Origin: an uncultured bacterium
GTDB lineage: Bacteria; Omnitrophota; Gorgyraeia; Zapsychrales; Aceulaceae
Assembly: GCA_937930175.1 (NCBI GenBank)
Contig: CALGLP010000004.1
Span: 2,163-66,162, forward strand
Reading direction: 5' to 3'
DNA: 64,000 nucleotides
Shown here: positions 25,205-59,478 of the stretch, one piece after another
Numbering within the stretch: the first letter of the stretch is position 1
Layout of the letters: each line of letters starts with the position of its first letter
Notes under the pieces: model-generated
The model's database searches: none
What the model was told of the DNA's origin: nothing
What the model saw: only the letters and a program-made list of their open reading frames with translations
Made by a program: the position numbers and the translations under genes

Positions 25205-25394
25205 GATCTTAACGATCGAGCGCTTCTTGATCTTTCCCTGCAGTGTTCGTCGGAAGCCAAATATACTGAACCAATACAGTATATAAGGGAGCATTCGTTC
25301 TGTTAAATGTCTGCGGACATTTCAGAGAAGCACCCACTTGTAACGAACGGTTCATGTTACTAAGCTTCTGACGGCACAGGCGGGGTTCATTATT

Positions 25395-32082: not shown

Positions 32083-32156
32083 TGCCCTGTCGTCTAATGG
32101 TAGGACTCAAGATTCTGGATCTTGCTATCATGGTTCGAGTCCATGCGGGGCAGCCA
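32083..32156 (+). tRNA. tRNA-Gln (CUG)
   Basis: Acceptor TGCCCTG/CGGGGCA, anticodon stem CAAGA/TCTTG with loop TTCTGGA, and T arm CATGG-TTCGAGT-CCATG. CCA is encoded. Length 74 nt. Confidence 0.9.
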
Positions 32157-33833
32157 ACCTTGACGCTCAGGCGAACTTCGAGCGTTCGATACAGTAACAA
32201 GCGCCTTGCAGGCATCCCCTGCAGGGCGCTTGTCATTTTTAGGGGCTTTTTGGGTCTCCGGGGCGGGCAGGCTGCATGAAATGCTGTCAACGGTGGGCTG
32301 GTCTATATACATTTTGATTTCGATATAATCCTTGTAAACGACGATTTCCTTGATCATGGCTTGTATAAGGCTCTTCTGGGCTTCCGGAGGGGCCTTTTCG
32401 ATATATTGCATGGCAAACCTAAGGTTTGAGTGCAAGAATTGCCCCGAGCTTGCCGACATTTGAGCCACGTTCTTTTTAGCCTGCAGTTTTTCCAGCTCGT
32501 CTTCTAGCCTGACAATCTCCTCATCAAGCCTCGCCATCTTGTCCTTGTAAGTCTTCCCTTGCGATATCCTGTTGTCCATAGCCAGTTCAAGAAGCCTGTT
32601 CGCTTCCTGTTTGGTCTCTTCAAGTTTCTCCTGGAGAGGCTTCATCATTTTCTCAAGGGCCTCGAGTTTTATCTGGGAATCAAGGATTGCGTCTCCGATC
32701 GCCTTTACGATGATGTCCTGATCAGTAGATGCCCGCTTGAAATAATCGATAAGCGCCTCATCAAAGCCCCTGGCAGAGAACCTAGACACATCACAGCCTA
32801 ATTTCTGCTTGGACCTGCCGCATACATAATAAAAGAATTTCTCAGCTGCCTGGCCGTTGCCGCTTTCGCAGACATAGTGGCTTCCGCATTCGCCGCACTT
32901 AAGGAGCCCGGCTAAGAGGTAGATATACTCCGGGGTCTGTTTTATAAAGCGATGCCCGGGAAGTTTTGCGGTGAGGACCCGGTTTGCCTTTAACCATAAC
33001 TCTTCGTCCACAATAGCAGGATGAGTGCCTTTGTGGATCTCCTTGCCGTATTTTATATAACCCTTGTGAAATTGATTCTTTATAATCCAGGCAATGCTCT
33101 GCTTGCGCCAGACTTTACCCGTAGGAGTCTTTATGCCTCTGCGGATTAACTCCTGTCCGATATCATAAAGCGACTTGTTATTAGCGGCCATCTCCCAGAT
33201 AAAGCGCAGCTTATTTCCTGTTTCAGGATCGACAATAATTTTATGCGGCTGCCTGCCGTTTGGAAGAGGCGCGCCGTCTGGTATCAATTTATAACCGAAG
33301 GGCACGTTGCCACCAACCCACCTGCCTTGTCGCACCCTGGCAACGCAGGAGGCCTTCACGCGCTCGCCGATGAGCTCCCGCTCAAAAGCCGATAGAATAC
33401 CGAGTATGCCGATTACTACCCTGCCTATGGCAGTTGAGCTATCAAGGTTTTCGCGTACGGATACGAAAGCGATCTCTTTGGAGTTGAATAGATCAATAAG
33501 CCAGTAGAGGTCACGGGTATTGCGGGTTAAGCGGTCAAGACGGAAGAAGATTATTCCGTCAAACGCGGCAGTTTTTCTGCGCACGTGGTCAATAATCATC
33601 TGGATGCCGGGTCTGTTGAGATCCTTGCCGGAATAGCCGTCGTCTTTTACCACGCCTTTATTGCCTATATCGGCAAGCTCATGCCCGAACGCATCCAGCA
33701 GATTCCTGCAGTGGTAGGTCTGGGCATCCAGGGTAGTAAAATCTCCCTGGGCCTGGTCGTCGGTAGAGCAGCGCGTATATATAACGTAGCGTTTTTTCTT
33801 ACGGGTATTATCTGTTTTAACATTCATAGCCAT
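32094..33833 (-). CDS. Large serine recombinase (phage integrase)
   Basis: 579-aa ORF with the N-terminal resolvase domain YVIYTRCSTDDQ (catalytic Ser) and LDRLTRN, a recombinase domain, a zinc-ribbon region (CGECGSHYVCES...YYVCGR) and a coiled coil. The last ~60 codons run through the terminator and antisense to tRNA-Gln, so the true or functional 3' end is uncertain. Confidence 0.85.
   Translation of the reverse strand: MAMNVKTDNTRKKKRYVIYTRCSTDDQAQGDFTTLDAQTYHCRNLLDAFGHELADIGNKGVVKDDGYSGKDLNRPGIQMIIDHVRRKTAAFDGIIFFRLDRLTRNTRDLYWLIDLFNSKEIAFVSVRENLDSSTAIGRVVIGILGILSAFERELIGERVKASCVARVRQGRWVGGNVPFGYKLIPDGAPLPNGRQPHKIIVDPETGNKLRFIWEMAANNKSLYDIGQELIRRGIKTPTGKVWRKQSIAWIIKNQFHKGYIKYGKEIHKGTHPAIVDEELWLKANRVLTAKLPGHRFIKQTPEYIYLLAGLLKCGECGSHYVCESGNGQAAEKFFYYVCGRSKQKLGCDVSRFSARGFDEALIDYFKRASTDQDIIVKAIGDAILDSQIKLEALEKMMKPLQEKLEETKQEANRLLELAMDNRISQGKTYKDKMARLDEEIVRLEDELEKLQAKKNVAQMSASSGQFLHSNLRFAMQYIEKAPPEAQKSLIQAMIKEIVVYKDYIEIKMYIDQPTVDSISCSLPAPETQKAPKNDKRPAGDACKALVTVSNARSSPERQGWLPRMDSNHDSKIQNLESYH
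32197..32240 (+). terminator. Rho-independent terminator downstream of tRNA-Gln
   Basis: ACAAGCGCCTTGCAGG-CATCC-CCTGCAGGGCGCTTGT (16-bp stem with one G-U pair) followed by CATTTTT. It is T-rich only on the plus strand. Confidence 0.6.
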
Positions 33834-34761: not shown

Positions 34762-35334
34762 ATGAGTCTCAATTACGGGAAGTTATTTGAGAGCTGGGAG
34801 CTTGCCACCGCGAAGTCAATAATCAATGAATACAGAGAGAAGTATAAATATTTAAGACAGGAAAGCTTTGATGATCTTTTGCAGGATTGTCTTATCTGCT
34901 GGCTGGACCTGCGGGAGCGATACGATCCTGGTCGCGAAGCGTCAAAGAAAACTTTTATGGCCGGGGTCATTAAGAAAGAGCTTGAGAAAATCGCCGAAAA
35001 GCTTAAGGCACATAAGCGAAAGACGATTTTTGAAGCAGTCTCTCTGGATGAGCCCCTTAATGATGACGAAGTCGAGTCCACCTTAAAAGATAAGATTCCC
35101 GAAGACAGGGACGCCCCGCCACAAACCGAAACGGACCTCAAGATAGAAATTTCCAAGGTATATCAAAAACTTACTCCCCAGCAAAAGAAGCTATGCAGAC
35201 TGTTGAGCGATGAAGACCTCAGCATAAAAGAGGTCTGCAAGCAGTTTGGCAAACAAAAGAGCAGTATATACAGAGAAATATCCCGAATTCGGGAGATCTT
35301 CGAGAGGGAAGGCCTTAAAGATTACCTGAAATAA
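34762..35334 (+). CDS. Phage-encoded sigma-70-family (ECF-like) sigma factor
   Basis: 190-aa ORF with a region-2-like segment (DDLLQDCLICWLDLRERYDP...TFMAGVIKKEL) and a region-4 HTH (LTPQQKKLCRLLSDEDLSIKEVCKQFGKQKSSIYREISRIREIF). Confidence 0.65.
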   Translation: MSLNYGKLFESWELATAKSIINEYREKYKYLRQESFDDLLQDCLICWLDLRERYDPGREASKKTFMAGVIKKELEKIAEKLKAHKRKTIFEAVSLDEPLNDDEVESTLKDKIPEDRDAPPQTETDLKIEISKVYQKLTPQQKKLCRLLSDEDLSIKEVCKQFGKQKSSIYREISRIREIFEREGLKDYLK

Positions 35335-36116: not shown

Positions 36117-36542
36117 ATGGGAAGCGAAAAGATAGATATCAGGGATTTGCGCGACGGCAAATTCCTTTGGATAGATAAGGCAGCATTAAGACTCATTAGT
36201 GAGAATGCTGGGACAATGGGCGTAGCTGTTTACTCATGGCTTTGTTATTACGCTAATTTTAAGGCGCAGGACTGTTTTCCGTCTATTACTACACTGGCAT
36301 ATCACTGCGGAGTATCCAGGCGCACGATCATGCGGGCAGTGAAGCAGCTTGAGCGGCTAAAAGCTGTCTCAATTGAAAGGAAGAAGGGCAAGCCGAATAT
36401 TTATAAGCTGCTTAATATTTCCGCAGTCAAAAGTTATCCACAACCAAGTAGTGACATTGATGTCACCAGTGACAGGGCTGTCACTGGGGTAGTGACACAG
36501 GCGTCACCAGAGGTAGTGACTGGCGTGTCACACGAACAATAG
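36117..36542 (+). CDS. Winged-helix DNA-binding protein, replication-initiator-like
   Basis: 141-aa ORF with FPSITTLAYHCGVSRRTIMRAVKQLERLKAV (HTH). Its 3' end contains four GTGAC-N6-GTCAC sites. Confidence 0.5.
   Translation: MGSEKIDIRDLRDGKFLWIDKAALRLISENAGTMGVAVYSWLCYYANFKAQDCFPSITTLAYHCGVSRRTIMRAVKQLERLKAVSIERKKGKPNIYKLLNISAVKSYPQPSSDIDVTSDRAVTGVVTQASPEVVTGVSHEQ
36451..36531. repeat. Four tandem 16-bp palindromic sites GTGAC-N6-GTCAC (iteron-like; candidate phage ori)
   Basis: The sites are at 36451-36466, 36469-36484, 36492-36507 and 36516-36531. An AT-rich tract follows immediately (36541-36600). Confidence 0.55.
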
Positions 36543-36726
36543 ATATATAACAAGAGATAACTATCAAAAGATAGTAGTAGAGGCTGTGAAATTGTGAATA
36601 ACTCTGGTTTGTTCTTAAAAGAAAGCTTGCGGGTCCTTCCAAGGGGGTGTGCGGCGCGGGTCGGGCGAGGCGCGGGCTTTCAGTGATTAGGGCTTAAAAA
36701 ATTGATGTCAATGTCAATGAAAATGG

Positions 36727-36760
36727 GTCCTACCCGAAAAGGGCGGAGGACTATCTTTTT
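36727..36760 (+). terminator. Hairpin plus T-run terminator in the 260-nt non-coding gap
   Basis: GTCCTACCC-GAAAA-GGGCGGAGGAC followed by TATCTTTTTC. Confidence 0.4.
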
Positions 36761-36805
36761 CATTTAACTATATATCTATTAAAGGGTTAGAAAAAGGAGG
36801 ATAGA

Positions 36806-38113
36806 GTGGCAAAGATTAACATAAAGCCCGAAATTAGTGACATAAAGTTATCAGAAATAAAGCCCGCCCCATATAATCCGCGGGAGATTACGAATGAGGC
36901 GCTTTCGGGCCTGCGGCATAGCCTGGAAAAGTTTGGCTATGTAGACTTACTGGTAGTCAATAAGCGCAACATGCATATCATCTCAGGGCATCAGCGGTAT
37001 AGGATTTTGCAGGCAGAGGGCGTTGCGACCGCACCGGCTATCTTGGTCGACGTTGATGAAATTCAAGAACAGGCAATGAATGTTACGCTCAATAACCAAG
37101 AGATTGCTGGTCAATGGACGCAGGCGCTTATCCCGCTTTTAGAGAAGTTGCGCAATGAGGCGGCTGATGATTACCTTGCCTTAAGGCTTAAGAATTTACG
37201 GGACAGTGTCGGAGACATGGGAGTTGAGAATTTAGGAGACGGTAAGACGCTTCCGGATGATATTCCTGAACCGCCTAAAGAGGCGATTACTAAAAAAGGC
37301 GACCTTTGGATTATGGGCGAACACAGGCTTCTCTGCGGCGATTCTACAAACGAAAGCGATGTGGCGCGGCTTATGGATAATCAAAAGGCAAGCTTGTTTG
37401 CTACGGATCCGCCCTATTGCGTTGATTATACCGGAGCCGACAGGCCTACCGGCGGCCACGACTGGTCCGGAGTTTATCATGAAGTCGATATTCCGGATGC
37501 TAAGGAATTCATAAAGAAGTTTTATGTAGTGGGCCTTAAGCATATCAAAGAAAATACCGCACTCTATCTTTGGCATGCTTCAAAACGAAGAGGCATGATT
37601 GAGAATATCTGCGACGAGCTGGGCATTCTCCTTCACCAGCAGATTATATGGGTTAAGCCTTGCGCGGTATTAACATATTCGTTTTATTCTTGGCGCCATG
37701 AGCCCTGTCTTCTTATGTGGGTTAAAGGACAAAAACCACCCTATAAGCCAAAAGACAAATCTATCGGCAGCGTGTGGATGATTGATTTCTTGCGCTCAGG
37801 TGATCCTGCTCAAGCCGAATATCATACTGATGTCTGGGAGCTTGATTGGGAAGGCAAGAAACGCAACCCAGGTCTGCATCATCCAACAGTTAAACCTACG
37901 GAGGTATTCGCTATTCCTATGCGCGTGCATACGTCGCCCGGAGAAATCTGTTACGAGCCGTTTAGCGGGTCTGGTTCGCAGATCATTGCAGCTGAACGGT
38001 TAAATAGGCGCTGCTATGCGATGGAGATCGAGCCTATCTTTTGCGACGTGGCCGTCAAGAGATGGGAGGAATTTTCAGGAAGGAAGGCGCATAGAGAAGA
38101 TAGCAATGGATGA
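36806..38113 (+). CDS. ParB-like nuclease domain fused to a DNA methyltransferase (beta-class N6A/N4C)
   Basis: 435-aa ORF starting at GTG with an AGGAGG RBS. It has a ParB-N domain (IKPAPYNPR...ISGHQRYRIL), motif IV DPPY (LFATDPPYCVDY), and motif I afterwards (YEPFSGSGSQIIAAERL). Confidence 0.8.
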   Translation: MAKINIKPEISDIKLSEIKPAPYNPREITNEALSGLRHSLEKFGYVDLLVVNKRNMHIISGHQRYRILQAEGVATAPAILVDVDEIQEQAMNVTLNNQEIAGQWTQALIPLLEKLRNEAADDYLALRLKNLRDSVGDMGVENLGDGKTLPDDIPEPPKEAITKKGDLWIMGEHRLLCGDSTNESDVARLMDNQKASLFATDPPYCVDYTGADRPTGGHDWSGVYHEVDIPDAKEFIKKFYVVGLKHIKENTALYLWHASKRRGMIENICDELGILLHQQIIWVKPCAVLTYSFYSWRHEPCLLMWVKGQKPPYKPKDKSIGSVWMIDFLRSGDPAQAEYHTDVWELDWEGKKRNPGLHHPTVKPTEVFAIPMRVHTSPGEICYEPFSGSGSQIIAAERLNRRCYAMEIEPIFCDVAVKRWEEFSGRKAHREDSNG

Positions 38114-38732: not shown

Positions 38733-40551
38733 TACTGTTTTGCCTTATGCGGCGGAGGAATGGGTTTTGCCTAATAAGATGACGGTGAGTGAATGGGCGG
38801 ATGCATTCAGGCGGCTCGACGTGAAAACTTCTGCAGAGCCAGGGCAATGGTCAACAACCAGGACGCCGTATTTAAAAGGGATTATGGATGCGTTCACGGA
38901 TCCGTTTGTTGACGAAATAACGGTTATGGCAGCATCTCAAGTTGGGAAGACTGAAGCGATGTATAACATGCTGGGCTATGTCATTGACCAGGATCCGGGG
39001 CCGACGCTTATGGTCTCACCCCGGGCCGATGACGCAAAGAGCGTTTCGTATAATAGAGTCCGTCCAATGATTGAAGTTTCCCCTATATTAAATAAATATC
39101 TTCCTGAGAATCTCGATGATATCACGAAACTCGAATATCATTTTGACCGCATGATTCTTTATTTTGCAGGATCCAACAGCCCGGCCGATCTTGCATCGCG
39201 GCCTATCCGTTATCTGTTTTTAGACGAGGTTGATAAATATCCGAAATTTTCGGGCCGCGAGGCAGACCCGATAAAACTTGCCTCAGAAAGGCAGAAAACC
39301 TTTTGGAATAAAAAGACGATCAAGGTTTCAACGCCGACTACGCGCGAAGGATATATCTTCAGGGAATATGAGAAATCAGACCAGAGGCGATTTTATGTAC
39401 CATGCCCTCATTGCGGCAAACTGCAGGTTTTGTTATTTGGCCAGATTAAATGGCCGAGAGAGGAATCTTCGCCCGAGAGGATTAAGAATGAACGACTAGC
39501 ATGGTATGAATGTTTTCATTGCGGCAAGAAGATAGAAGACTCGCAAAAGCAGAAGATTATGTTAAGCGGTGAATGGATTCCAGAGAAGAAAGAAAAAAGC
39601 AGAAACCGCGGGTTTTGGGTAAGTTCTCTTTATTCTCCCTGGCTTACATGGAGTGACATCGCCTCGGAGTTCTTAAAATCAAAAGACTATATCGAGCTTT
39701 TAATGAACTTCGTCAATTCCTGGCTGGCAGAGGTTTGGGAAGAGAAAATCGAAGAGACAACAGTAGATAAGGTGCGCAACCTTGCCCGTGACTATGATGA
39801 GGGAGTTGTGCCGGATGAAGTTTTGGTTTTAACTGCAGGCGTGGATGTGCAGAAGGATCACTTTTATTTTGTGATACGCGGCTGGGGATATTACGAAGAA
39901 TCGTGGCTTATCCGCGCAGGCAGAGCTGAATATTGGGATGATCTGGTAGAAACCCTATTTAAAACAGAATACAAAAGATTATCTTCAGACGAAACCCTAG
40001 GTATCTATATGTCATGTATTGATTCAGGATTTCGAACGGATGAAGTATATCGTTTTTGCCGGAGCTGGGCCGATAAGACAAAAGCGATAAAGGGAGTTGA
40101 AGAAATCAGCGGAGGCAGATTTTACCGCGCAAACAAAATAGATATCAATTCGCGCACCGGCGCAGTTATCCCATGCGGGCTTGTCTTATGGCATTTAAAC
40201 GTAACACAATATAAGGATAAAATTAACCGGCTTATTACTTCCCGGGATCCGGTCAAGTGGCACATCTTTAAAAACCCAAGCGAGGAGTATCTGACTCAGT
40301 TTGCTTCTGAGCATAAGATATTGATACGCAACCGCACGACCGGCCGGGCAAAGGAAGTTTGGCAGAAAAAGAAAGAAGCAGCGGCAAATCACTTCCTTGA
40401 CGCCGAGGTTTACGCTTTAGCTGCGGCGGATATTATCCGCGCCTTGAATATCCGCAAGGACGGCGCCGTGAGAGTTTACCAGCCGAAAGCTAAAGAGCAT
40501 GAGCATTCAAGGGAAGATTGGATCCGGAAAAGGGAAGGGTCTTGGCTTTAA
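38701..40551 (+). CDS. Terminase large subunit, lambda GpA family
   Basis: 616-aa ORF with Walker A MAASQVGKTE, Walker B YLFLDEVDKY, and a C-terminal nuclease region. Size and order are as in lambda. Confidence 0.85.
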   Translation: MGIKIAKAIVNTVLPYAAEEWVLPNKMTVSEWADAFRRLDVKTSAEPGQWSTTRTPYLKGIMDAFTDPFVDEITVMAASQVGKTEAMYNMLGYVIDQDPGPTLMVSPRADDAKSVSYNRVRPMIEVSPILNKYLPENLDDITKLEYHFDRMILYFAGSNSPADLASRPIRYLFLDEVDKYPKFSGREADPIKLASERQKTFWNKKTIKVSTPTTREGYIFREYEKSDQRRFYVPCPHCGKLQVLLFGQIKWPREESSPERIKNERLAWYECFHCGKKIEDSQKQKIMLSGEWIPEKKEKSRNRGFWVSSLYSPWLTWSDIASEFLKSKDYIELLMNFVNSWLAEVWEEKIEETTVDKVRNLARDYDEGVVPDEVLVLTAGVDVQKDHFYFVIRGWGYYEESWLIRAGRAEYWDDLVETLFKTEYKRLSSDETLGIYMSCIDSGFRTDEVYRFCRSWADKTKAIKGVEEISGGRFYRANKIDINSRTGAVIPCGLVLWHLNVTQYKDKINRLITSRDPVKWHIFKNPSEEYLTQFASEHKILIRNRTTGRAKEVWQKKKEAAANHFLDAEVYALAAADIIRALNIRKDGAVRVYQPKAKEHEHSREDWIRKREGSWL

Positions 40552-56258: not shown

Positions 56259-56834
56259 ATGGGAAATTATACAAGCGGGCCCCCGAAAAGCTCCGGAGGA
56301 AATCCAGTACCTACAACATGGACGGACGATCCATTAGTTCAGGATGTTACGCCTATTAAAAAGACGCACATTGTAGAGCTACGGGCTTGTTTAGAAGCCT
56401 TAGACGGCCATTATCATGTATTCAATGGGAACAATTCAAACGCGGAAGTGCCGGATGTATCTGTGGCATGGGCAGAATCAAATGCGCAGCTTATTGTGGA
56501 TGAAACGCCGCCGAAGGCATCGCATACTAATGAGGTTATAAATTTTATCAAGGCCTTTAATGGTCACTACCATTATGTGCCAGCATACAGCATTAATTCC
56601 AACGCCTTTGCGCCCGGTTTTGCTTTTGAGGACGACCCGGTTACAGCGCTTGTTACATGGATCAAGGCATCGGCTCACGAACAATTAAGAAGCCATTTAG
56701 AAAGCTTGGCAGGGCATACGCATATAGTCTGCTGTGAATGCGAATGCACCTGCACTTGTACCTGCACGTGTACTTGTACCTGCACCTGCACCTGCCAGGA
56801 GCAGTGCTGCAGCGAATGCGATTGCGGAGATTAA
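56259..56834 (+). CDS. Fibre-module protein with three His-rich helical repeats and a 16-Cys C-terminal tail containing (Thr-Cys)x8
   Basis: 191-aa ORF ending HIVCCECECTCTCTCTCTCTCTCTCQEQCCSECDCGD. There are three copies of a ~20-residue K..H..EL(R)..LE.L.GH.H unit. Its stop lies 1 nt before the radical SAM gene ATG. Confidence 0.6.
   Translation: MGNYTSGPPKSSGGNPVPTTWTDDPLVQDVTPIKKTHIVELRACLEALDGHYHVFNGNNSNAEVPDVSVAWAESNAQLIVDETPPKASHTNEVINFIKAFNGHYHYVPAYSINSNAFAPGFAFEDDPVTALVTWIKASAHEQLRSHLESLAGHTHIVCCECECTCTCTCTCTCTCTCTCQEQCCSECDCGD
56748..56795 (+). repeat. Imperfect hexanucleotide tandem repeat (ACN-TGY)x8 encoding (Thr-Cys)x8
   Basis: acc tgc act tgt acc tgc acg tgt act tgt acc tgc acc tgc acc tgc. 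Confidence 0.9.
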
Positions 56835-56835
56835 A

Positions 56836-58122
56836 ATGAAGCCAAAATCTGCCTATATTTTTGTGACTAATAAATGCAACCTGCGCTGTAAATATTGCTA
56901 TGAAGAAAACCGCACCGGAGATATGACACCGGAAACTATGGTTGCGGCCATAGACTGGCTGGTAAGCCATTATGAAAAAGAAATGTTTGCCCGGCCTTTT
57001 GAAAGCCTGACCTTTACATTCTTTGGCGGAGAACCGCTTCTTAATTTTCCGACAGTCAGGGCTGGTATAGATTACCTGCGGGGCATATGCGATAAGCTTA
57101 ATTTTAAGGCAGGAATCCACATTTTATCAAACGGGACGGTATTTACAGATGAGATGACAGAGTATTTTAAGAACATTCGTCAATACAATAATTTCAACTG
57201 GCACTTTCAGGTGTCATTGGACGGCTGCGAGGAAACGCACAACGCTAACAGGGTATTTGCCAATGATGAGGGAAGCTATAAGGTTATTTCAGAAAACATA
57301 AAAAAGATCAGGGAAATTTTCAAAAGCGTAGGCGTGCGCATGACCGTTACGCCGGAGAATATAAAATCACTTTCAAAAGATTTTGAGGCTTTGCTTTCTT
57401 TTGGCACGCCTGTGACTAACCTTACGCCTATTGTAGAAGGCGACTGGAATGATGAGGTGATCGGCACATTCATAGATGAGCTTAAAAAATGCATTGAGCT
57501 GTATTACCGAAAAGGCCATAACCAGTATTTTAATTATCTGCACCATTCTTTGGAGAGGATAGTGGACAATTCATTTAACCGGCAGAAGGGCTGCAGGGCA
57601 GGGGAATTCTTGATAGGTATTTCAACTGAGGGCAAGATCTATCCTTGCCACAGATTTGTCGCCTATTCTAAGAAAGATGACTTTTGCCTGGGCGATGTCT
57701 GGAAAGGTATAGACGAAAACGGCGAGGCGTTTAAGAAAATAAAAGAAATGCGTCAGAGGGCAGTTAAGTGTTTAAACTGCAAGGTGTTTTCCTGTAACAG
57801 GTGTTTTGCAACAAATATGTACTTGAATCAGGATCCCGCGGCGATTCCCGACAACGGGTACTGCGAAATGAACGAAAAGATATCAAGCGCCTTGCGGCCG
57901 ATAATAAGGAGGTTGTTTGTGGAAGGAAAATTACCGCTTAAAGAAGGCGAAATGGCAGATCTAAAAGATAATGGTGTTATGTATAAGATAAGTAAAGACG
58001 AGCCTGCGGAGCTTGTAGAGGACAAGTTAGATGTAATGGCCCGCTGTATGATCCGCGTGGTGAAAGAACTGCAAGAGGTAAAGTCAGCGCTGTCTTTGCT
58101 TGCATCGAGGCATAAGGATTAA
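56836..58122 (+). CDS. Radical SAM enzyme with C-terminal SPASM-type auxiliary Fe-S domain (peptide-maturase/anSME-like)
   Basis: 428 aa from ATG 56836, with a GGAG RBS 6 nt upstream. Motifs: CNLRCKYC (CX3CX2C, 56875-56898), FFGGEPLL, and a C-terminal Cys cluster GCRAGE...YPCHRF...CLNCKVFSCNRCFATN...GYCEMN. Confidence 0.8.
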   Translation: MKPKSAYIFVTNKCNLRCKYCYEENRTGDMTPETMVAAIDWLVSHYEKEMFARPFESLTFTFFGGEPLLNFPTVRAGIDYLRGICDKLNFKAGIHILSNGTVFTDEMTEYFKNIRQYNNFNWHFQVSLDGCEETHNANRVFANDEGSYKVISENIKKIREIFKSVGVRMTVTPENIKSLSKDFEALLSFGTPVTNLTPIVEGDWNDEVIGTFIDELKKCIELYYRKGHNQYFNYLHHSLERIVDNSFNRQKGCRAGEFLIGISTEGKIYPCHRFVAYSKKDDFCLGDVWKGIDENGEAFKKIKEMRQRAVKCLNCKVFSCNRCFATNMYLNQDPAAIPDNGYCEMNEKISSALRPIIRRLFVEGKLPLKEGEMADLKDNGVMYKISKDEPAELVEDKLDVMARCMIRVVKELQEVKSALSLLASRHKD

Positions 58123-58125
58123 GCT

Positions 58126-59478
58126 ATGAAGTATTTATGCATCGTTCCATATGAATATACCACTATAACGATGATGTACCGGAATTCTCCGGTCGGCATC
58201 TATAAGGTTGCCACAAAACTGCGCAGAGAAGGCCATACTGTAGAGCTTTTTAACATGTACCCTCTTTACCGCCCGAGAAAGTTTATGGAGAATAAGCCGG
58301 GCGCGATGTATTTCAAGGGCATACCTGTATCTCAATTTATCGGTTATAAGAAGTGCGGTAATTTCGAGAACGAGAAATTATGCAGGGAGTTTCACAGGCT
58401 GGGACTGCCAATATCAGAACTTACGAAAAAGTTAGAGGAGTTTCAGCCTGACAGGATATTTGTTGGCAATACCTTTACTTTTCTCTGGAGGGCAGTTTAT
58501 GAGATCGTAGCCGAATGCAAAAAGACGATGCCTAAGGTTCCGGTAAAGGTCGGCGGGCTATATGCTATTCTTTGTCCGGATCATGCTGCAGCATCGGGTG
58601 CCGACGAAGTCATGACCCTGGAAGAAAAGACTACGAGCGATAACTTTATCAAAATAGATACGGATTTATTCGGTGATAACCTTCCAGAGAGGATATTTTT
58701 AGGGACCTCGGTAGGCTGCCCCAATCATTGCTCATATTGCGCTGTTCATATTGTAGAGGGCTGCACAAAGGTAAACACCAGCCCGGATGAAGTAGTAAGC
58801 GAGCTTAAGTATTATAAATCAATGGGAATAAGCAGGTTTATTTTTCTCGACGCCAATATCCTCTATGGATACGAGAATCATTTTAAAGTTATTCTCGATA
58901 AGGTTATCCAGGAAAACTTAAATATAGAGCTTTATTCCTACGGAGGAGTAGAGGCGCGCCTATTGACCGATGATATTGCAGAAAAGATGGTTAGTGCCGG
59001 GTTTCGTTCGGTGAATATTCCTATTGAGAGCGCAAGCGACATTATTATTAAAGAATGGAAGAGGAATTGCTTTGTTGCCGACTGGGAACAGGCGATGAAT
59101 GTTGCTAAGAGGCATTTTCAGCGTCTGCGTTCTTTCCTGATTATCGGCGCGCCGAATCAGACCGCAGAAGATATTAAGTCAACCATTGACCTGATTAAAA
59201 GCTACGGTGCAGAGGCGGTAACTCTGCCGTATACGCCGATTCCAGGTACTCCTGATTACGAGAAGTATAAGCATATCGATTTGGAGGACCTTAACCCGGC
59301 CTTTTATCCCTGCGCGCATGAGCGGATGAAAGCAGCTGATTTAGAAAAGTTTTACTCTGAAAACCGGAATGTCAGGTTTTGCTTAAGAGATTGGGATGAT
59401 GCTCAACAGAAAATACCGCCGCCCACAAAGACGATATTTGAAAGCGGACCGGCAGTAAAAACTAAAGGAGGGGATTAG
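58126..59478 (+). CDS. Radical SAM enzyme with N-terminal B12-binding-like (class B) domain
   Basis: 450-aa ORF with an N-terminal Rossmann-like segment (LCIVP...SPVGIYKVATKLRREGHTVELFNM) and a CPNHCSYC CX3CX2C motif (58717-58740). It starts 3 nt after the previous stop. Confidence 0.7.
   Translation: MKYLCIVPYEYTTITMMYRNSPVGIYKVATKLRREGHTVELFNMYPLYRPRKFMENKPGAMYFKGIPVSQFIGYKKCGNFENEKLCREFHRLGLPISELTKKLEEFQPDRIFVGNTFTFLWRAVYEIVAECKKTMPKVPVKVGGLYAILCPDHAAASGADEVMTLEEKTTSDNFIKIDTDLFGDNLPERIFLGTSVGCPNHCSYCAVHIVEGCTKVNTSPDEVVSELKYYKSMGISRFIFLDANILYGYENHFKVILDKVIQENLNIELYSYGGVEARLLTDDIAEKMVSAGFRSVNIPIESASDIIIKEWKRNCFVADWEQAMNVAKRHFQRLRSFLIIGAPNQTAEDIKSTIDLIKSYGAEAVTLPYTPIPGTPDYEKYKHIDLEDLNPAFYPCAHERMKAADLEKFYSENRNVRFCLRDWDDAQQKIPPPTKTIFESGPAVKTKGGD

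Follow-up and report, generated by a model that had tools for sequence, protein, structure and literature searches.

The window analyzed here, a 64-kb stretch of Omnitrophota DNA, carries a prophage with lambda-like head, tail and terminase genes and a complete structural module; the features discussed below are collected in Table 1. The prophage adjoins a tRNA-Gln gene, and the 3' end of its large serine recombinase ORF overlaps the complete plus-strand tRNA by ~60 nt, so that the C terminus and stop codon of the integrase are read from tRNA DNA in the integrated state. No att direct repeat of 14 nt or longer was found, as expected for a serine integrase. The 2-kb early region contains a sigma-like gene and small ORFs without matches. 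The gene following the wHTH gene that is the subject of this analysis encodes a DNA methylase; a parS/ParB reading of the locus was dropped, as the neighboring "ParB" is only a ParB_N domain fused to this methylase. Beyond it lie genes for TerS, a gpA-family TerL, portal, major head protein, tape measure and a J-like central tail fiber, the two terminase genes falling within 2 kb downstream of the array described below. Pfam and PHROG searches detected no helicase, primase, helicase loader or polymerase gene in the prophage. Two radical-SAM genes, one of them with a B12-binding domain, come directly after the tail genes at the prophage's right end; they could be phage cargo or host genes, and are followed by host-like TetR and outer-membrane efflux genes. 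A 6S RNA is encoded in the host part of the window.

Table 1. Features of the window, with positions counted from its first letter.
Feature	Coordinates	Strand	Description
6S RNA	25232-25390		Rfam, 66 bits, above gathering score; ~7 kb left of prophage
tRNA-Gln	32083-32156	+	adjoined by prophage
Large serine recombinase	32094-33833	-	
Sigma-like gene	34762-35334		early region
Short-form initiator-like gene	36117-36542	+	141 aa; Pfam HTH_36 (PF13730), E 7e-13; wHTH plus tail encoded by putative origin DNA
Probable replication origin	36434-36601		~170 bp
DnaA box 1	36434-36442	+	TTATCCACA, perfect consensus; 8 nt upstream of site 1
Site 1	36451-36466		GTGACA-TTGA-TGTCAC, perfect palindrome; codons S-D-I-D-V-T
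Site 2	36469-36484		GTGACA-GGGC-TGTCAC, perfect palindrome; reading frame as site 1
Site 3	36492-36507		GTGACA-CAGG-CGTCAC; frame differs from sites 1 and 2 (V-T-Q-A-S)
Site 4	36516-36531		GTGACT-GGCG-TGTCAC; frame as site 3
A-rich candidate unwinding element	36535-36579	+	22% GC, 56% A on top strand
First 11-mer	36535-36545		AACAATAGATA
Second 11-mer	36549-36559		AACAAGAGATA
Third 11-mer	36563-36573		ATCAAAAGATA
TAG stop of wHTH gene	36540-36542	+	inside first 11-mer
DnaA box 2	36593-36601	-	TTATTCACA, fits TTATNCACA; faces box 1 across array
12-nt inverted repeat	36538-36549, 36769-36780		AATAGATATATA / TATATATCTATT, perfect
10-nt inverted repeat	36566-36575, 36750-36759		perfect
Conserved GC-rich element	36630-36716		non-coding; candidate cos or late-operon control site
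Invariant core of GC-rich element	36658-36672		GGGTCGGGCGAGGCG
Tandem hexamer	36705-36716		ATGTCA-ATGTCA
ParB_N-N6/N4 DNA methylase	36806-38113		next gene after HTH_36 gene
Two radical-SAM genes	56734-59478		
TetR and outer-membrane efflux genes	61.5-63.6 kb		host-like

The wHTH protein is related to PHROG families annotated as replication initiation protein, O-like and DnaD-like (E values of 2e-11 to 1e-8, with the O-like families at E~1e-8), the DnaD-like families being helicase loaders. These matches cover only the N-terminal parts of the families concerned. The final ~90 nt of the gene are filled by an array of palindromes: the initial annotation had reported four of them within the 3' end of the wHTH gene, at the start positions listed in Table 1, directly followed by an AT-rich stretch, and had proposed that the repeats force the C-terminal peptide of the protein. 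Each of these descriptions is borne out. Direct reading and a pattern search both give exactly four matches to GTGAC-N6-GTCAC in the 64-kb window, spaced by 18, 23 and 24 nt, where dinucleotide-preserving shuffles (n=100) give a mean of 0.00; the ORF reading agrees on the position of the array, and the peptide that had been quoted, SSDIDVTSDRAVTGVVTQASPEVVTGVSHEQ, is the one encoded. When one mismatch is tolerated a single extra site appears in the 64-kb window, at 2169, which is outside the prophage and unrelated, and there is no second cluster of sites elsewhere in the window. The consensus can be refined to GTGACA-N4-TGTCAC, to which sites 1 and 2 conform perfectly and sites 3 and 4 with one mismatch each. 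Translation runs through sites 1 and 2 as aGT GAC ... GTC ACc (S-D..V-T) and through sites 3 and 4 as GTG ACa ... TCA Cnn (V-T..S-P/H), and thus one DNA motif is maintained in two reading frames. Scans for promoters and terminators returned hits at chance level only, no Rfam family matched within 36-37 kb at gathering thresholds, and cumulative GC skew rises monotonically over 34-39 kb without inflection at the array and is uninformative. A reading of the palindromes as host LexA boxes was dropped, as no matching motif was found.

Scanning of viral, genome and metagenome contigs yielded 91 distinct loci with a common synteny, and a second profile scan of viral contigs returned the same contigs only. 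Loci from separate collections were de-duplicated solely by the exact sequence of a 350-nt region, and the loci are phylogenetically related, so that the counts and p-values given here overstate their independence. Relatives are found in genomes of Omnitrophota, among them that of Ca. Velamenicoccus archaeovorus LiM, which is complete, and cultured phages and plasmids contain relatives at no more than 31% identity. The gene occurs in two forms. In 55 of the 91 loci it encodes a long form of ~265 aa, with the array in mid-gene and followed by ~130 codons for a C-terminal domain; the remaining 36 distinct loci, the window copy included, make up a short-form clade from which this domain has been deleted. 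One long form (L060) is nested within the short-form clade, indicating that the deletion of the C-terminal domain is secondary. The possibility that the missing domain is encoded separately in the window was rejected by tblastn and hmmsearch. Purifying selection on the short-form wHTH is strong (dN/dS of 0.056 at a dS of 0.96), and the gene is therefore not decaying. AlphaFold models of the long form place the wHTH at residues 21-98 (pLDDT 72-88) and a helical C-terminal domain (pLDDT 83.6 when modeled alone) on either side of a low-confidence segment (residues 102-153, pLDDT 26-32) encoded by the array and the A-rich DNA; in long forms the array-encoded segment is therefore predicted to be a disordered linker between the two domains. 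Sequence searches of the PDB with the full protein and with a profile of the C-terminal domain were empty, and Foldseek searches against the PDB detected generic wHTH regulators only, at E>0.03.

All four sites with the 18/23/24-nt spacing are present in 78 of the 91 loci and at least three sites in 86, site 1 being the best conserved across the family, and the array always accompanies the wHTH gene. Among 22 loci, third codon positions inside the half-sites have a mean pairwise identity of 0.937, with 13 of 16 positions invariant, against 0.489 for third positions of the wHTH domain; third positions in the invariant-residue codons of that domain likewise give 0.489, with 4% invariant. The corresponding values are 0.38 in the N4 spacers and 0.62 between the sites. 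Conservation within half-sites is equal at all three codon positions (0.917/0.927/0.937). A Mann-Whitney test, uncorrected for phylogeny, gives a p of about 5e-8. Short-form ORFs end at six different positions with respect to site 4 (+2, +8, +26, +29, +146 and -74 nt) in DNA that is otherwise nearly invariant. In one locus (L075) the ORF stops before the array, and three sites, both of the DnaA boxes described below and the A-rich repeats are retained, with most of the array persisting as untranslated DNA. These results support the proposal of the initial annotation that the DNA of the array, and not the encoded peptide, is under selection. Were the repeats selected instead for the repetitive protein tail that they encode, with its V-T/S-P motifs, or for four hairpins in the mRNA, the recognizable conservation of the SD..VT..VVT..SP peptide and the 6-bp hairpin possible at each perfect site would be accounted for, but such a reading is scarcely credible given that third codon positions are conserved like the first and second, that a single motif is read in two frames and persists largely untranslated in L075, and that the segment encoded is predicted to be disordered. 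Changes in variant sites also go uncompensated (TGGCAC) or turn one half-site round to give a direct repeat (GTGTCA-N4-TGTCAC), so it is the identity of the half-sites, rather than hairpin potential, that is maintained.

Two further kinds of element that were absent from the initial annotation, DnaA boxes and an 11-mer repeat structure, are found at the array. Across the short-form alignment the upstream DnaA box does not vary, in contrast to the sequence on either side of it. A box in this position occurs in 77 of the 91 loci, on the plus strand in 48, where it encodes S-Y-P-Q, and on the minus strand in 29, where it encodes P-V-D-K. The downstream minus-strand box is found in 67 of the 91 loci; it is conserved in short forms, being a perfect TTATCCACA in L007, and encodes a conserved L-W-I in long forms. 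The density of DnaA boxes is 6.88 per kb for the 230-nt region and 0.035 per kb for 453 kb of flanking sequence, an enrichment of ~200-fold, and 12 loci are without any box. It is assumed from the near-universal box consensus that the DnaA of Omnitrophota would bind these sequences. The A-rich element, with less than half the 47% GC of 32-56 kb, is the least stable 40-mer of that region and consists of three 11-mers with a 14-nt period. The stop codon of the wHTH gene falls within the first of these, and the A-rich repeats are nearly invariant across short-form loci despite not being translated there.

In most of the family the recognition helix is VSRRTIMR and the wing ERKKGKP, and the sites are GTGACA-N4-TGTCAC. 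Two lineages depart from this majority in both protein and site: L023 and L024, with helix VSGRTIAR and an altered wing, have CTGACA-N4-TGTCAG sites, and L127, with helix VSVRTVRR and wing FREKGKG, has GGGACA-N4-TGTCCC sites in which the 18/23/24 register is retained. In each case the change is symmetric across both half-sites. Such co-variation of helix and half-site is what a cognate dimeric binder predicts, and would point to the wHTH protein as the ligand of the array, although the independent events are few. In three other loci (L063, L107 and L150, with helix LS(K/R)RT.MRV) the right half of several sites is GACAC rather than GTCAC (GTGACAC-AAAC-GACAC), giving a direct rather than inverted pair of half-sites and suggesting monomers that can be re-oriented within a site.

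A protein that binds its own array might also be a transcriptional regulator (an autoregulator, an immunity factor or an early-to-late gate) whose palindromes act as operators or roadblocks controlling read-through, with no role in replication. The window protein consists of a DNA-binding domain only, its relatives carry source annotations that include "ArsR family regulator" and "biotin operon repressor", many repressors are among the fold matches, and the late operon follows closely on the array. This explanation is nevertheless unlikely, since the sites are not at a promoter-like position and in 55 of the 91 loci are inside coding sequence, at least 400 nt from the next gene; it also leaves the ~200-fold enrichment of DnaA boxes and the conserved A-rich repeats unexplained, and the best profile matches of the protein are to replication initiators. 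A dual role in replication and autoregulation is compatible with these observations.

Downstream of the array is a second conserved non-coding element, which is GC-rich and always located just upstream of the ParB-methylase/TerS/TerL genes, even where inserted genes part it from the wHTH gene. Its parts occur in the order CGGGTCCTT..GGGTCGGGCGAGGCGCG..CTTCAGTGAT, an A-run and a tandem hexamer whose two units co-vary between loci (ATGTCA, ATGTCC or ATTTCA, each twice). The sequence GGCGAGGCG is common to the core and to the cohesive end of P2 (PMC3931495), and the element is a candidate cos (cosN and TerS sites) or a late-operon control site. A structured RNA was rejected here (RNAalifold, -5 kcal/mol, no compensatory pairs), and the RNA fold of 36530-36810 gives a z of only -2.2. 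The two perfect inverted repeats that bracket the intergenic region between the wHTH and methylase genes are conserved in the closest relatives only. Between the initiator gene and the GC-rich element, L011 (4512-4976) and L012 (4913-5380) contain an inserted ORF for a hydrophobic protein of 154-155 aa without family matches and L024 (4221-4835) one of 204 aa, making this interval a hot spot for cargo insertion.

The palindromes themselves could in principle be packaging signals, namely the TerS-binding sites (cosB or pac-like) of a cos region upstream of the terminase genes. TerS and a gpA-family TerL are encoded within 2 kb, and the strongly conserved GC-rich element, which may be cosN, lies ~100 nt downstream of the array. 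In lambda-like phages, however, cosB is located between cosN and the terS gene (PMC4669245), and in the present locus the GC-rich element separates the array from the terminase genes, opposite to that layout. Gene insertions (L011, L012 and L024) leave the array linked to the wHTH gene and the GC-rich element linked to the packaging genes, at a distance from each other that varies from ~100 to >1000 nt. The modules also recombine independently (in L070 and L072 a short-form array is found together with a GC element of the type seen in the other clade), and changes in the sites track the recognition helix of the wHTH protein, all of which renders a packaging role for the palindromes very improbable.

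Taken together, the segment from box 1 to box 2 is probably the origin for vegetative replication in a temperate, lambda-like siphovirus that is integrated as a prophage in an Omnitrophota genome, a reading that rests on sequence and its conservation. It combines initiator sites, DnaA boxes and a repeat-bearing unwinding element, which is the usual grammar of theta-type origins (PMC4980987). Dimers of the wHTH protein would bind the four GTGACA-N4-TGTCAC sites, and the fixed 18/23/24-bp spacing would allow the bound dimers to form a higher-order complex. Host DnaA would occupy both of the boxes that bracket the array, and initiator and DnaA would jointly open the duplex at the A-rich 14-nt repeats next to the array, and the host helicase would be loaded there; a host helicase is proposed because the phage has no helicase, primase, loader or polymerase gene of its own. 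In the ancestral full-length protein the origin DNA would have doubled as the code for a disordered linker between the DNA-binding domain and the helical C-terminal domain, and the clade to which the window belongs would then have deleted the latter while retaining the whole origin. The initial annotation had proposed a phage origin at this position, and all sequence-level predictions of a lambda-like origin within the initiator gene that could be tested came out in its favor; as a qualification, the window copy is without the C-terminal domain of the long form.

The role of the truncated protein can be suggested only tentatively. The short form may be a minimal "origin organizer", with recruitment of the helicase falling wholly to host DnaA at the flanking boxes, or it may occupy the origin as an exclusion or copy-control factor directed against co-resident full-length relatives. 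The genome of Ca. Velamenicoccus archaeovorus LiM (NZ_CP019384.1) carries one long-form and one short-form gene with its origin (L054 and L068, at about 1.877-1.888 Mb and 1.926-1.936 Mb), ~49 kb apart and both of GTGACA-N4-TGTCAC specificity. There could be cross-talk between these two related prophages, and the pairing hints at the exclusion or copy-control option. If true, either role would make the short form a natural dissection of what an O-type initiator needs. A further reading is that the array of this particular prophage is an origin relic or a decoy, either because the protein has stopped initiating and now targets the origins of related phages for exclusion or copy control, or because the short-form phage needs a co-resident long-form relative. 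Absence of the C-terminal domain and the shared site specificity of the two LiM copies would fit such a history, but it is improbable: 36 distinct short-form loci have kept DnaA boxes, sites and A-rich repeats intact at a dS of about 1, as expected for an origin that is still used, and the structural module of the window prophage is complete.

The wHTH gene and its origin would make a compact candidate replicon, ~0.5 kb, for the Omnitrophota, a phylum that is to our knowledge represented almost exclusively by metagenomes and one enrichment culture and for which we know of no genetic tools. The array is also a clean case of selection on DNA sites overriding codon choice, the odd peptide tail or linker being a by-product of the putative origin, and the long and short forms provide a natural experiment on whether an O-like initiator can dispense with its recruitment domain where DnaA boxes are present. 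The locus would place a familiar origin design in a barely cultivated phylum and leaves the understanding of phage origins unchanged.

The closest architectural parallel is the lambda origin, where the O-some is built from O dimers on four iterons (PMC3985674). In the annotated lambda record four 18-bp iterons start at 39034, 39054, 39078 and 39101, a spacing of 20/24/23 that compares with 18/23/24 here, and they cover O codons ~117-145 (~112-139 here) and are followed by an A-rich run. Both systems have four sites of ~16-19 bp with internal dyad symmetry, about two helical turns apart, and in the 55 long-form relatives, as in lambda, the sites are in the linker that follows an N-terminal DNA-binding domain and precede a top-strand A-rich run. 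In the window copy, unlike lambda O, the array is at the 3' end of a truncated gene and the C-terminal domain is absent. The proteins are also of different families (PF04492, Phage_rep_O, in lambda and PF13730 here), with hhalign giving a probability of 1.3% between the family profile and lambda O. There is no P-like helicase-loader gene, the next genes being the ParB-N6/N4 methylase, TerS and TerL, and the array is bracketed by DnaA boxes, of which none is annotated within ori-lambda in the lambda record. The parallel with lambda drawn in the initial annotation therefore holds as one of architecture, with four in-gene sites and an AT-rich region, and does not extend to sequence homology or to a P-like gene.

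The element shares its grammar with the iteron plasmid origins (P1 oriR, RK2 oriV, F and pSC101), which likewise contain repeats that bind the initiator, DnaA boxes and, for unwinding, an AT-rich element with short repeats in tandem. In P1 oriR, DnaA boxes are found at both ends of the origin. In plasmids of this type Rep and DnaA cooperate in DNA opening and helicase recruitment (PMC4980987). Plasmid iterons, however, are repeated in direct orientation and bind monomers of Rep_3-type initiators, which have two winged-helix domains, whereas the sites described here are palindromes, the protein has a single wHTH with no Rep_3 match in Pfam, and the putative origin is inside the initiator gene of an integrating phage. 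For the RepA_N replicons (the RepA proteins of staphylococcal pSK41/pTZ2162 and of the Vibrio PLE), Pfam gives no match to RepA_N (PF06970) at E<=0.01, generic wHTH proteins are structurally at least as similar, and RepA_N iterons converge on a poly-A tract, which the sites here do not. By analogy, the element would work like a lambda-type intragenic origin with plasmid-like assistance from DnaA, while belonging by sequence to neither the lambda O nor the Rep_3 family and giving no RepA_N match at the threshold used.
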